Shown here: positions 12,001 through 17,601 of the stretch, piece after piece
Layout: every line of letters starts with the position of its first letter
Position numbering within the stretch: position 1 is the stretch's first letter
Made by a program: the position numbers
Source: a virus
Taxonomy: Duplodnaviria > Heunggongvirae > Uroviricota > Caudoviricetes
DNA length: 17,601 bases
Strand: one strand, 5' to 3'
IMG/VR virus record: IMGVR_UViG_2563366990_000006

Positions 12001-15000
12001 TGATGTCAACGGTAGGCTATGCTGCGAAAGCGGGTCAGGCCGTGAACAACCTGCAGAAAATCTTTGATGATAAGCCGGACAGGGCGATTGCTTCGCTGAA
12101 TACCCCGGAAAATCTCGATGTGCTTTCCGGCGTGTTTGCCCCGGAACTACAACAGCGTATTGGCATGCCTGATTCAACCGGGGAGAAAACGATAAAAGAG
12201 GCCAGGATTGGCAGTATCGTACCGGCGCAGCAGGAAGGGTACGTACTTATTGGCCTTGATCTCACATACAGCGATGGCTCCACCGCGCATAAACCTGTAA
12301 CAGAATACGGCAGTGCGCACCCTGATGATCAAACCGTGCTGGCGATACCCGTTGATAAGGCTATCGCTCAGGTCAGGGATCGCAGCAAATTTGCAGAGAT
12401 ATCGAAAAATTATGGTTATTTTATGCCGAAGCAGCAGGGACTTTCTCTGGCGAAACTTCAGGAAGTAGCCAGCAACGTAGCGGCGGATGCGATCAAGAAT
12501 GGCCGTGATGCTCAGGCTGAGGTGGATGAATTTTATGCTGCGAATGGTTTACAGCCGCATCAACAGAAAGTTCAGCAACGGAAAACGCAACAGCTTTTAC
12601 AGAAGTGGCAGACGTGGGCGGCGGGCGATCCGGTTAAACAGGAGTTTGTAAAAGAGGCTGCCGCCAATGCGCCTGCTTTGCTGGAACCTGGTCGTGAAAA
12701 GGAGGTGGAAATTTATTACCAGAATCACCTCCGGGATAAAAAGGCAGAGCATGAAAAGGCGCTGGATTATAGCGCTTCCGCAGCTGCCGAGAAGATCAAA
12801 GGCTGGATGAAGTAAAGATATGCGGCAGTAACGCGCTCCCCGTTAATATCGTTCACTTACGCCCGACCATCGTGTCGGGCTTTTTTTTACTGGAGTCTGT
12901 ATGGCTTTTTCAGATGAGCAGCGCCCTGAAGCGCAATTGGGTAACCAGAACCGCAGCAGCCTGAACATTAAGCAGCCGGGAGAAAATTACTGGCAGGATT
13001 TTTTCAGCAACCCGCAGAATGCCATTGATCACAGCACATCGTTCAGCCTCGGTGATGTATTGCCAACAATGGGTAAAGGTGTTGCCCAGTCCGTCCGGGG
13101 AACAGGGGAAATGGCCCGTGGACTCGGTGATGCGATGATTCAGAGCCCGGTAAAAACAGGGGCGCGTATTTTAAATGAGTTCAGCCGTATGGGGCTACCG
13201 GGTGTCGCAACTGTTCAGGATATTTTTGCCGGTGGCAGCAGGGGGGCTGATGAGGTCATCGATACCCTGCCTGATGGAAAAAACGTGGTCACTGATACTG
13301 TCGGTAAAGGTCTGAAAGCAACCGGTAAGGCTGTCAGTGATGGTGCCAAAGCCTCGGATGAATGGCTGACAGAACAGATGTCGCCAGGTGCTGTTCGTGC
13401 GCTGAATACGCCGATAACAGAAGGCTATGATGATTCTGCGGTCTTGCTGGCGAAGGGTGTAAACCTGATTGGTGCGCTTGTACCTGATATGGTTGCTGGC
13501 GGTGTGGCTAGAAAGGTGGGTGATGTCACACTGCGAAAAATGCTGACCGCCGGGCTGGAGAAAAAATACATCGCGGCAGGGATGCAGCCGGAAAGAGCCA
13601 CGGCACTGGCAGCAGAAGCTGTCGATAAAAAAATGCCGGATTTATTCCAGGCGGGCCTGATCACCCATTCCACAGCCAGTGCACAGGGGCAGAGTGCAAT
13701 GGCGGCAGCAGATGCTGTTCTTAATGCGGATTACTCTGAGCTGGCGCAGTCACCGAAATTTCAGCAGACGTTTTTGTCCATTGACGCCGACCCGCAGCAT
13801 GCACAGCTTACTGATCGCCAGAAAATGGATCTGGCAAAAGAGCGTGTTGCCGATGAGGTGCGCGCGCAGCTGGCAACCGATCCTGAATTGCTGGCTGTGA
13901 ATGCCATGGCGGCAAAACTGGGTGACGCACAACTGTTTAATCTGGTGACACGAGGCACAGCGAAGACCGTTAAAAGCGGCATTGTCAGAAATGCCACGGA
14001 ACAGGGCGTAATTAACGGGGCACAGAACGCCTATTCGCGCTATCAGGAAAACATGGCATTGCGTGAGACCGCCGGAATGGATGTATCGCCATGGGAGGGG
14101 GTGACTGACGCAGGGATTGAAGGCACTGTTTTCGGTGCTGCGATGGGGGCTCCATTCGGTGCGGTTGCCGGATATCGTGGCAGACGTCAGGCCGCAGAAG
14201 AAGCAGCCATGCGTGATGCTGAAACCGTGCAGCAGGACGACGCAGCCCCGCAACCCGAACCGGTTGATCCGGTGGCACAGCATCGTGAATCCATGCAGGG
14301 CATGAATCGCGAGCAGCTTCTGGAACAGTATGCTGATGCGGATATGGCAACAGAGGGTGACGCATCCGCAGCTCATCGCCGGGAAGCTGCCAGCCAGTTG
14401 TTGAATGAACTGGACGAACAGGCGAAGCGACAGGCTGTGATGAATGAGCTGAAGGCGAAGCCGCGTTCTGAACTGCTTGAGGAATACCGCAGACTCAGCC
14501 AGAAAGAGGAGCGCACCGAGACTGAAGAACAACAGTTTCAGGCAATACGAGAAGTCATTCGCCCACAACAGGAAGTGACGCCGGAAGCACAGTCACAGCC
14601 TGAAAATGCGGAGGATGGTAACGGGAGCATTTACCCGACGGTGCGGTTCCGGGACCCGAATGAAGTCCGCATTGAAATTAACGGGAATGGTGCGTCCAGA
14701 CCAGCGGAACGCATTGAAAAGGTGCGCCCGGACAACCGTTATTTCACGGATGAGAAAAGCGCCATGGGGAGTGATGTTTTCCGTAATGCCGCCGCTACCG
14801 GCCTGAAACCGTCCGTAGTGAAGAAAGGCGAGAATCAGTATGCCGTTGAAATGGATAATCCTGCGTTCTCTGAAGATGTGGCAACGGAAACCATTAACAC
14901 CCTGGCTGACGGAGAGCGTATTGCTGATGCTGACCCGATGGAGCAGCCCGCGTTCATGCGTGACCCGCGATTCCGTGGTTTCACGGGGGATGATACGGAG

Positions 15001-17601
15001 GTACAGGCCCGCCTTGCCCGTGGCAACGCGCCGATGGCGGAGGAGCTTGTACGTTCACAGATGGCTGAGGGTGATGCCGGTCCGACAGCACAGGAGTTAA
15101 CTGAGCGTCCGCGTCTGCCCGCCCCCGGCGATATTCATCCCGGACAGGGATATCCGTTACCGGGAGAGGTGGCGCGTACGCCGGATGAGAATCAGGCCGG
15201 ACGTGGTGGTCGTTTTACCACAACCGGTGAGGTTAAGGGCCAGAGTTTCCAGAAAGGACGTGCTCCGGCACCGGAAAACGCCGCTGGTCGCCAGGGGGAA
15301 ACACTCGAGGGTGAAATAGTTCGTCGTGGTCTGCCGTCACCGGATGCGCAGAACGCGACAGCACCGGTACGTGAAGGGCTACCGGCTCCTGACATTGCGC
15401 GTAATGTTCGTATGCCTCAGCCTGAATCACTTCCCCGCACTGTACGGGACTCACTGCCTGAGCTCGCACAGCAGGCAGAAGTACGCCGACAGGCCGGAGG
15501 AAATCGTGACATCCCGCAGCCTGAGACAATCGCACCTGAATCTGAAACAACTGTCTTTACTGACAGGGAATCTACCGTGCGCGGAGGTGAAGTCAGGGGC
15601 AAAAAAATTGAAGACTTTGGCGAGGAAATTAAAGGGGCAGCCAAACACCGTTATGCACAGCTTGCTGAAACACTGGGTAAAACGCTGGAAGACAGGGATT
15701 ATGCCACGCAGCCGCTGAGCAAACTGTTCCCGAAACCGGACTACGCAAAACTGGCGAACGAAGGTGCCGATGCTGACACTCTGGCAATGATAGCGCTGTA
15801 TCGTAGCGATATTCCGGCGAAGACGAAACACAATACGGCAGGCTGGGGGGAGAGCGTAAAAAAAGTACGACACAGTGTATCGGAAATGCTGAACGGAACG
15901 GTCAGCGCGAAACGCCTCGCAGAATGGATGGAAGGCAGAATGCCCTCCCGTTACGCGGATACCTGGCAACTGTTACGCACTCTGCCACCCTCACAGATGG
16001 ACAGGGCTTCTGCTTATCGGGTGGTATCGGGTGTGTATCAGGCGGCAGGAGGGAAGCGTTACGATCCGCCACAGAAACTTTATTCACTGCGCAATAAGGA
16101 CAATAAGGGGAGTAACCTCTTTTTCTCGGAAAGCAGGGATGAATTACTGGCAAAGGCGAAAGTCTGGTTTGCAGAGCAGGAGGAAAAATCACAGGCGAAA
16201 GGTGATGAAAAAACAGCACCGTCACCGGATGACAAAATCCGCTTTGACGTTTACCGGAATACCCGCAGTGGCGATATTTTTATCGCTTACGGTAAAAACA
16301 AAATGCGGGTGAGAGGTGGCTTTAAGTCAGCCAGTGATGCGCGTAAGTACATTGATTCACATCGTGATGAGCTTGTTCGTCATGTGAAGGATATGCGGGA
16401 GATTTCGCGTGAGGAGCAGCGTAACGCCACCAACCGCGACCGTACCGGACCAGAACGCCGTAAAGGGGATGTTTCACCGGAGCAGTTCAGTGATGCGTTT
16501 GGTTTCCGTGGTGTGCAGTTTGGTAACTACGTGGAAGGTCCGCGTCGTCAGGCTGATTTGAACCGGGCTTATGACTCGCTGCATGACCTTGCGGAAGTAC
16601 TGAATGTACCGACAAAAGCGCTTTCCCTGAACGGTCGTCTTGGCCTGGCATTTGGTGCCCGTGGTAAGGGTAAGGCGGCGGCACACTATGAGCCGGGTGA
16701 GGTGGCAATCAACCTGACAAAAGGTAACGGACCGGGTGCGCTGGCGCACGAATGGTTCCATTCTCTGGATAATTATTTTGGTCGTTATGACGTTTCCAAT
16801 GACGGGAAAATTACGTCAGGTGGCGACTTTATGACGGAAGCACAGCGTGTCAGGCGCATATTTAAAGACGGCAGGTATGTTGATGCTGAATATCCGGTAC
16901 GTCAGGAGGTTTACGACGCTTTTAAAGGTGTGATTCAGGCCATTAAAAACAGTGACATGCCGCGTCGTTCAGCGCTTCTTGATGAGGTGCGCTCAAAACC
17001 GTACTGGTCAACGGATGTTGAAATGGCGGCGCGTGCCTTTGAGCGTTATGTTCAGGATAAGGCGCGTATGGCTGGCGTGGAGAATGATTATCTGGTCAAT
17101 ATCCGTAAGGCACCTGAGCACAACACAGATAACACCTGGGCTTATCCGACGAATGCGGAACTGGATGGCGGTATTCGTGATGCATTCGATCACCTGTTCA
17201 GTACGCTGAAAACCCGTGAGACGGACAAGGGCGTTGCGTTTTATTCCCGTAAGGGCGTAACCCGCACACCTGAAGGCAATCTCATTTCGGATGTTAACCG
17301 TAGTGCGGCGGAAGCCAAAGGCAGCCCGGTCCCGCAGGTTGAAGCGGTTGCCCGTGGCGTGATGAGCGGCATTAAGGACAGTGACCTGAAGGTCCGTGTG
17401 GTGAAGTCACAGAAAGAGGCTGAAGCGCTGGCGGGCGAATCGTTCGATGGTTACGGCAGGGTGCACGCATTCTATCGTCCGGATAAACGAGAAATAGTCC
17501 TGGTGGCGGATAACATCCCTGACGGGCGGACCGTACGCGAGAAGCTGCGTCACGAGATTATCCACCATGCCATGGAGCATGTTGTCACGCCAGCGGAATA
17601 T

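Follow-up and report, generated by a model that had tools for sequence, protein, structure and literature searches.

Short-tailed Shiga toxin (Stx)-converting phages carry Shiga toxin genes from one E. coli to another, and a single giant gene accounts for about 14% of their genome. In phage Sp5 every late gene has been deleted, and ORF80, encoding a protein of 2,793 residues, was found to be essential, as was ORF79; without ORF80 the DNA was packaged and the heads looked normal, while tail-fibre antibody binding was lost (Mondal et al. 2016, PMC5155283). The same study proposed an AAA+ function (COG1483) for ORF80, with an energy-requiring role. In the present study, we analysed a window of 17,601 nucleotides of a Caudoviricetes phage (IMG/VR virus record IMGVR_UViG_2563366990_000006), which ends inside a gene of this kind. 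The results suggested that the open reading frame (ORF) starting at 12901 is likely to encode the first 56% of a giant virion-internal protein known from short-tailed Stx phages, a polyvalent protein built on the plan of gp50 of phage N4 and probably injected.

The corresponding protein of phage phi24B, gp47, was described in a 2026 preprint (bioRxiv 10.64898/2026.04.10.717836). It was detected in purified virions with 10,962 peptide-spectrum matches (PSMs), second after the capsid protein. These matches were most numerous in the uppermost gel slices, above the portal of 80 kDa, and therefore the bulk of the protein is packaged as a very large polypeptide. The protein was invisible in the cryo-electron microscopy (cryo-EM) map, and a capsid-packaged ejection protein was proposed. 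Internal tail contents, possibly a core, were also reported in intact virions, roughly 36,000 of the particles imaged counted as "ejected", and the domains listed for gp47 were LPD5, LPD1, LPD38 and a "Muf-C metallopeptidase domain".

The other closely related system is the virion RNA polymerase (vRNAP) of phage N4, gp50. Membrane-spanning helices are predicted at residues 224-278 of its N-terminal domain (NTD), which inserts into nanodiscs, associates with gp51 and is needed for injection; a low-complexity linker of about 100 residues follows, the chain is ejected as beads on a string, and a conserved HExxH lies in the C1 domain (Bellis et al. 2025, PMC12633501). In the survey of polyvalent proteins by Iyer et al. 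(2017), the N4 N-terminal region was not linked to other proteins.

The window belongs to a phage of the genus Traversvirus, short-tailed and Stx-converting, and by sequence identity its giant gene is the ortholog of Sp5/VT2-Sakai ORF80 (ECs1242), phi24B gp47 (vb_24B_48) and 933W L0134, which likewise follow the ORF79/gp48 gene and encode the same domains. It shares 96.6-96.8% nucleotide identity with VT2-Sakai and phiSTEC1589, and its protein 95% amino-acid identity with phi24B gp47. The ORF was matched over its full length by 186 phage records at 80-99% nucleotide identity, VT2-Sakai (Sp5), 933W and phi24B among them. The frame (frame 1, 1,567 codons) is stop-free to the window end, and it is absent from the list of closed ORFs because it overruns that end; since the full-length ortholog has 2,793 amino acids (aa), the window holds 56% of the gene. 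The features of the gene are as follows.

12861..12888, plus strand: intrinsic-terminator-like hairpin with T8, between the upstream gene and the giant gene
12892..12895, plus strand: GGAG ribosome-binding site, followed by 5 bases and the ATG at 12901, read from ACTGGAGTCTGTATG
12901..17601, plus strand: giant virion protein gene, first 1,567 codons (about 56%), overrunning the window end
13048..14175, plus strand: N-terminal 'head' domain, aa 50-425, homologous on profile evidence to the N-terminal injection domain of the N4 gp50 vRNAP
13438..13608, plus strand: segment aa 180-236, aligned by hhalign with the predicted membrane-spanning helices of N4 gp50 (residues 224-278)
14122..14172, plus strand: glycine zipper GTVFGAAMGAPFGAVAG, aa 408-424, end of the head domain
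14176..15600, plus strand: acidic, then Pro-rich, hydrophobic-poor linker, aa ~426-900, with 5-11 hydrophobic residues per 40
16048..16497, plus strand: LPD5 domain, aa 1050-1199 (Pfam PF18799, E 2e-45)
16441..17217, plus strand: predicted CLCA_X-type zincin domain (module 1), aa ~1181-1439, with the LPD1 region as its C-terminal helical half and HEWFH at 16747-16761
17335..17601, plus strand: N-terminal two thirds of module 2, aa ~1479-1567, an H-E-x(2,3)-H domain with HEIIHH at 17551-17568, cut by the window end

This layout agreed well with the original prediction, which a model had made from the window alone. The predicted frame of at least 1,567 codons after a terminator and a good ribosome-binding site was found (hairpin plus T8, GGAG, ATG 12901), with a stem of 7 pairs, 6 of them G-C, at 12861-12880 and the T8 tail after it. 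The counts also matched the predicted Ala/Gly-rich start of about 430 aa, acidic segment and proline-rich linker: Ala plus Gly reached 18-31 per 100 residues over aa 1-500, Asp plus Glu 18-21 over aa 401-700, and Pro 11-12 over aa 701-900. Altogether, that reading of the giant protein was largely right; it is already published and not new, as both the gene and its general interpretation are already known from the phi24B preprint and from RefSeq, where the orthologs are named "LPD5 domain-containing protein". What the present analysis adds to the literature is the homology to the N4 NTD, the pattern of chassis and cargo, the HExxxH consensus of module 2, a corrected location of the peptidase and the occurrence of the LPD5-zincin cassette in a conjugative element.

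Pfam was searched with the window protein and the full-length ortholog at E up to 0.1. Besides LPD5, LPD1 was found at aa 1360-1439 (E 1e-23), and MuF_C (aa 1750-1839) and LPD38 were found beyond the window in orthologs. Disparate domains thus stand in one chain (LPD5, the CLCA_X zincin with LPD1 and module 2, with MuF_C and LPD38 in orthologs), and the gene lies among virion and late genes, a layout shared by Vibrio phage D171. As predicted, this is the build of a polyvalent protein. It resembles the phage-type polyvalent proteins described by Iyer et al. (2017) and the DarB/DdrB-like giants of P1, which are likewise multi-domain, encoded among late genes and equipped with LPD domains and zincin-like peptidase hubs. 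LPD5 folded confidently in an AlphaFold2 model, with no convincing structural partner in structure comparison, and a PDB sequence search with the full-length ortholog gave no match.

Several observations on the orthologs and their annotation belong here. Two clearly distinct alleles of MuF-C are present among the E. coli and Salmonella orthologs, and the Salmonella ones are longer by about 300 residues in the stretch from LPD1 to module 2. One source gives the name "phosphoribosyltransferase" to a Salmonella fragment (P0136); no such Pfam domain was found in P0136 or in P0124, the latter being checked because of its own distinct N-terminal segment. The proposal of an AAA+ ATPase (Mondal et al. 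2016) was rejected, as the 2,793 aa contain no Walker A motif ([AG]xxxxGK[ST]) and no ATPase family was found in Pfam (E up to 0.1) or NCBIfam. Long antisense ORFs within the giant gene (13750-14568 on the minus strand and similar ones) are probably spurious products of composition; like ones are annotated in the phi24B record as hypothetical coding sequences vb_24B_50c to 52c.

The lead to N4 gp50 was a faint independent PHROG match to "virion RNA polymerase", at matching coordinates. A hidden Markov model (HMM) of the head family scored 49.7 bits against the first 700 residues of N4 gp50, while the best of 500 local-composition shuffles scored 2.4. When the head family was compared with the N-termini of nine N4-like vRNAPs by hhalign, the probability was 98.6% (E 6.6e-16, 287 columns), with window aa 50-425 aligned to gp50 aa 114-445; the reversed-template control gave 0.2%. 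Pairwise phmmer between the N4 gp50 and window N-termini gave no signal above shuffles, and an HMM from the nine N4-like N-termini alone did not find the single window sequence, so the relationship is visible to family-profile methods only. At that level, the head (aa 50-425) is homologous to the N-terminal injection domain of N4 gp50. The segment aligned with the N4 membrane-spanning helices (aa 180-236) holds the most hydrophobic 19-mer of all 1,567 residues (aa 181-199, Kyte-Doolittle 1.61), and four to five Gly at spacing 4 in the glycine zipper are invariant across the giant-protein family. A literature search returned no paper linking the N-termini of the Stx-phage giant and N4 gp50, and the phi24B preprint makes no mention of vRNAP.

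The likeness to N4 gp50 extends beyond the head. Both proteins are giant, virion-packaged and invisible in capsid reconstructions, and both are encoded by the last gene of the structural module. A low-complexity linker follows the head in each as a positional analogue, although it measures about 475 aa in the Stx protein against about 100 aa in N4, and an HE-motif domain lies further downstream, related at 81% hhalign probability. The cargo differs, being LPD5, zincin and MuF-C in the Stx protein and RNA polymerase in N4, and the Stx phage is temperate. None of the vRNAP Pfam domains was found in the window protein or the full-length ortholog, while N4 gp50 has four; the Stx giant is therefore not a vRNAP.

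When the first 450 residues served as the query of an exhaustive search, 97 proteins were returned, most of them 2,000-5,500 residues long. The match was always N-terminal, and more than 60 giant proteins have the head domain there. In an alignment of 12-13 giants, invariant columns were present in two places only, the N-terminal head and module 2. The variable domains between these giants included LPD38 (7 of 12), LPD39, methyltransferases, DdrB-ParB, Sno/SNF2 helicases, an Eco57I-type methylase, LPD5 with LPD1, and MuF_C. Vibrio phage D171, for example, has a 2,800-residue gene at the same position, with the same head and LPD38 and a methyltransferase-like middle. Among cultured phages, the records with the head and those with module 2 are the same ~300. 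These results showed that one chassis, made up of head and module 2, is conserved in more than 55 giants, and that the cargo on it can be exchanged. The sister giants that share this head and carry methyltransferase, helicase and DdrB-ParB domains are in this respect like the polyvalent proteins of Iyer et al. (2017).

Module 2 contains the second of two HExxH motifs in the window protein (aa 1551, nt 17551; the first is at aa 1283, nt 16747), with about 0.025 expected from composition. The original prediction had placed this motif in a further module at the window edge; the motif is indeed there, while the module is cut by the window and continues for about 115 residues in orthologs. The motif is not kept as HExxH in the family. 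In 55 giants, module 2 read HExxxH in 47 and HExxHH in 4 (the Stx lineage and one other), with HExxH lacking the i+5 His in 1 and no motif in 3, which makes HExxxH the consensus of the family. The H, E and H were nevertheless invariant, together with a Glu some 55 residues further on. Thus the lack of conservation that had been named as grounds for rejecting a zincin-like fold applies to the second motif in letter (HExxxH), not in spirit.

Compared with the C1/MPTase region of N4-type vRNAPs (nine-sequence profile), module 2 aligned through the HE motif at 80.9% hhalign probability (E 1.3e-5). The module 2 HMM gave no match to N4 gp50, and single-sequence hhalign was not significant; the profile found nothing meaningful among PDB sequences, and no Pfam model matched at E up to 0.1. 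On the 81% hhalign match to the N4-type C1 and a low-confidence structure model, the zincin fold predicted for module 2 is only moderately supported. Of the two HExxH motifs at which a zincin-like fold had been foreseen, the first is conserved and placed in such a fold, as described below, and for the second such a fold is a candidate.

The first HExxH motif lies between Pfam LPD5 and LPD1 in the middle of a domain, not at the end of a globular region as had been supposed. A search with this cassette region returned 1,272 homologs. In an alignment of 63 homologs with 36-64% identity, H1283, E1284, W1285, H1287 and D1290 were invariant, as were D1361, Y1368, E1374, R1378 and E1381 in LPD1. The alignment thus supplies the third, acidic ligand expected of a zincin, and the modelled module shows the zincin fold (beta-sheet, active-site helix and glutamate helix). 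The NCBIfam model NF041907 (CLCA_X) matched over positions 3-245 of 250 with 148.6 bits (E 2e-43). The score is lower than the curated cutoff of 260 bits, which places module 1 outside the standalone subfamily, as a relative at the level of the domain. The CLCA_X zincin-like family has been reported chiefly from phages and plasmids, within long proteins (Lenart et al. 2013), and an active-site motif of HExxH plus Asp is common to the family and module 1. The Asp stands 3 residues past the second His in the window (HEWFHSLD, 63-sequence alignment) against an HExxHxxxD consensus (Lenart 2013), which is an approximate agreement. In structure, module 1 was similar to enzymes that cleave proteins or peptides, namely MtfA, Pro-Pro endopeptidases and anthrax lethal factor. 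From sequence and model together, module 1 is a CLCA_X-type zincin domain with predicted zinc binding and peptidase activity.

This result bears on the location of the peptidase in the phi24B protein. MuF_C (1750-1839) contains no HExxH, and the only HExxH motifs of the ortholog are at aa 1284 and 1551. MuF-C has been classed as a PBECR domain of ribonuclease (RNase) fold (Iyer 2017). Because the only HExxH motifs fall outside MuF_C and this class is RNase-like, MuF-C is not the metallopeptidase, judging by motif and class, which corrects the location given in the phi24B preprint.

The LPD5-zincin-LPD1 cassette was also found as a standalone protein of about 875 residues, encoded among TraG, TrbL, M23 peptidase and MobA/MobL relaxase genes of a conjugative element, in keeping with the expectation that giants of this build occur in phages and conjugative elements. 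These standalone proteins carry the same cassette at 36-48% identity, with a second HExxH about 233 residues downstream, and genes for a type IV secretion system and a relaxase adjoin them. They differ in having neither the N-terminal head nor LPD38, and their delivery is presumably by conjugation. The module around their second HExxH was only weakly similar to module 2 (hhalign probability 6.7%, and 41% in a later profile comparison).

Taken together, the evidence points to the following mechanism for the giant internal protein. After release of the tail needle, the protein would pass from the capsid into the tail and leave it as beads on a string, accompanied by the orthologs of phi24B gp48, gp50 and gp51. 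The head, which bears the hydrophobic helices and the glycine zipper, would anchor in the inner membrane as part of a DNA-ejection channel, and the downstream enzymatic modules would reach the cytoplasm. In that compartment the chain may be cleaved by module 2, the conserved domain, and host targets may be acted on by the zincin, by LPD5 and by the RNase-like MuF-C. That the protein would be delivered with the DNA, as had been predicted, is supported by the abundance of the phi24B ortholog in virions, its invisibility in cryo-EM and the homology to the N4 gp50 NTD.

Several points weigh against this reading. Delivery into the host cell is what we infer for the Stx phages from the homology to the N4 gp50 NTD, and the peptidase activity, its substrate and the processing event are predictions for the giant protein. 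The C-termini of the giants showed no relationship to N4-like C-termini (C2; hhalign 0.4%), and no pairwise similarity was found by BLASTP between the window neighbours and N4 gp51-54. The deletion phenotype also differs, as the loss of tail-fibre antibody binding seen in Sp5 is not what has been reported of N4 particles lacking gp50, which have another phenotype; a structural role in tail assembly may therefore be primary.

A broader proposal, to which we give slightly less than an even chance, is that the Stx giant and N4 vRNAP are two versions of one ancient protein-injection chassis, made of a membrane-inserting N-terminal head, a long linker and a conserved HE-motif domain, with lineage-specific cargo (RNA polymerase, ADP-ribosyltransferase, methyltransferase/helicase, LPD5-zincin or RNase-like MuF-C). 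The HE-x(2,3)-H domain would then be a zincin-like family so far unclassified, in which either His spacing is tolerated and whose role lies with the chassis, in packaging or self-processing, and not in action on the host. The suggested split assigns head, linker and module 2 to the delivery machinery, and LPD5-zincin and MuF-C to the cargo. If this is true, the inner-membrane part of the podovirus ejectosome is a general, reprogrammable delivery vehicle. The Stx giant protein is essential and abundant in virions, and the placement of its N-terminus in one family with the N4 gp50 injection domain offers a tested experimental model covering nanodisc insertion, the ejectosome and beads-on-a-string translocation.

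A related arrangement was observed in roseophage N4-type vRNAPs (L020, L021), in which the stretch separating the N-terminal domain from the polymerase holds extra cargo, namely ART-PolyVal and a weak HExxH region of Peptidase_M90 type; the insertion site of the cargo is therefore that of the Stx protein. The extra HExxH region resembles the window motif, yet the module 1 HMM scored at most 5 bits there.

Among the alternatives, the one that survives best is that the protein is a dispensable injected effector, putatively against host restriction or CRISPR defence, which we regard as possible but rather doubtful. The polyvalent-protein concept (Iyer 2017) favours it, as do the allelic diversity of MuF-C among close relatives and the methyltransferase, SNF2/Sno helicase and DdrB-ParB domains of the sister giants, which recall the Dar anti-restriction proteins of P1. 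However, even a permissive laboratory host does not make the gene dispensable, and the window part contains no known anti-defence domain, LPD5 and the CLCA_X zincin being without a known target. Because it is needed for infectious, fibre-bearing particles (Mondal 2016), the giant gene is not merely an accessory effector, and the original prediction of an injected effector needs correction in this respect. The cargo modules could still serve anti-defence despite the essentiality of the whole gene.

It is improbable, in our estimate, that the main role of the protein is structural, in tail assembly or as an internal core, where it would nucleate or stabilise the tail on the portal and its enzyme-like domains would be irrelevant or vestigial. 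The ORF80 deletion phenotype of Sp5, with DNA-filled, normal-looking heads that do not bind tail-fibre antibody, would fit such a role, and the internal tail contents of the phi24B preprint may act as a core. On the other hand, the catalytic-type H/E/H/D/E residues are invariant across homologs of 36-64% identity and across giants of 18-30% identity, which argues for a retained function. The giant protein is not resolved in the tail structure, and its N-terminal head is homologous to the injection domain of an ejected protein. Structural and ejection roles are moreover not mutually exclusive.

The authors of the phi24B preprint proposed that the metallopeptidase domain digests peptidoglycan and thereby lets the ejection conduit cross the periplasm. 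This proposal takes MuF-C for the peptidase, yet MuF_C has no HExxH and is RNase-like (Iyer 2017), while the zincin actually present, module 1, resembles endopeptidases of proteins and peptides. The Pfam searches with the window protein and the ortholog found no lysozyme, transglycosylase, M23 or M15 family, and the conjugative element that holds the cassette has a separate M23 peptidase of its own. In favour of the proposal, many podovirus ejection proteins, such as T7 gp16, carry cell-wall hydrolases. Weighing these points, we consider peptidoglycan digestion by the giant protein very unlikely.

Finally, a chimeric or fused assembly artefact, for which the unusual length of the ORF alone would speak and which had been named as a possible refutation, is given practically no credence, being refuted by the same contiguous sequence in 186 independent phage records and by a 2,811-aa product seen in mass spectrometry at very high apparent mass.

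The giant gene, read here as that of an internal and probably injected protein, is placed after the nozzle, needle and virion-protein genes, and its nearest partners are the following.

10101-10832 and 10829-11281, plus strand: two small genes, orthologs of phi24B gp51 and gp50, 97-99% identity
11553..12815, plus strand: upstream partner gene, ortholog of Sp5 ORF79 / phi24B gp48, with 1,634 PSMs in phi24B virions

The small genes upstream had been predicted to be virion-internal-like, and their products are indeed present in phi24B virions, gp51 and gp50 with 523 and 129 PSMs (10.64898/2026.04.10.717836). The product of 11553..12815 is a probable companion ejection or internal protein. Compared with phi24B, the gp48 ortholog was 80% identical and the first 200 aa of the giant 82-83%, whereas the other parts and neighbours were 95-100% identical. 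Set against the orthologs together, these first 200 residues (82-84%) are likewise where the window copy differs most. This joint divergence fits a physical partnership like that of N4 gp51 with the gp50 NTD; the stretch 11553-13500 looks like a recombination module, which hints at physical interaction.

Several further elements were observed in the window. Between the small genes and the partner gene, an 83-aa ORF (11291-11542) showed glycine-zipper/OmpA-like lipoprotein similarity (pdsO, E 3.4e-10), and its phi24B ortholog was barely detected in virions (13 PSMs). An IS66-family insertion sequence occupies 5488-7821, downstream of lom, with ORFs at 5488-5886, 5883-6233 and 6283-7821 (DDE_Tnp_IS66, E 3.6e-106) and a raised GC content of 0.55-0.60; it is absent at the same site in VT2-Sakai and phi24B. 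A moron of low GC content (~0.39) at 8388-9593 encodes a YadA-like trimeric autotransporter adhesin (YadA_anchor plus head repeat), which is present in phiSTEC1589-Stx1c and absent from VT2-Sakai and phi24B. This adhesin may be of the Eib type. In record L002 (PQ600364.1) the product names look shifted against the genes and the annotation is untrustworthy, with 'N4-family major capsid protein' placed on a 90-aa ORF and 'terminase large subunit' on the YadA-like gene.

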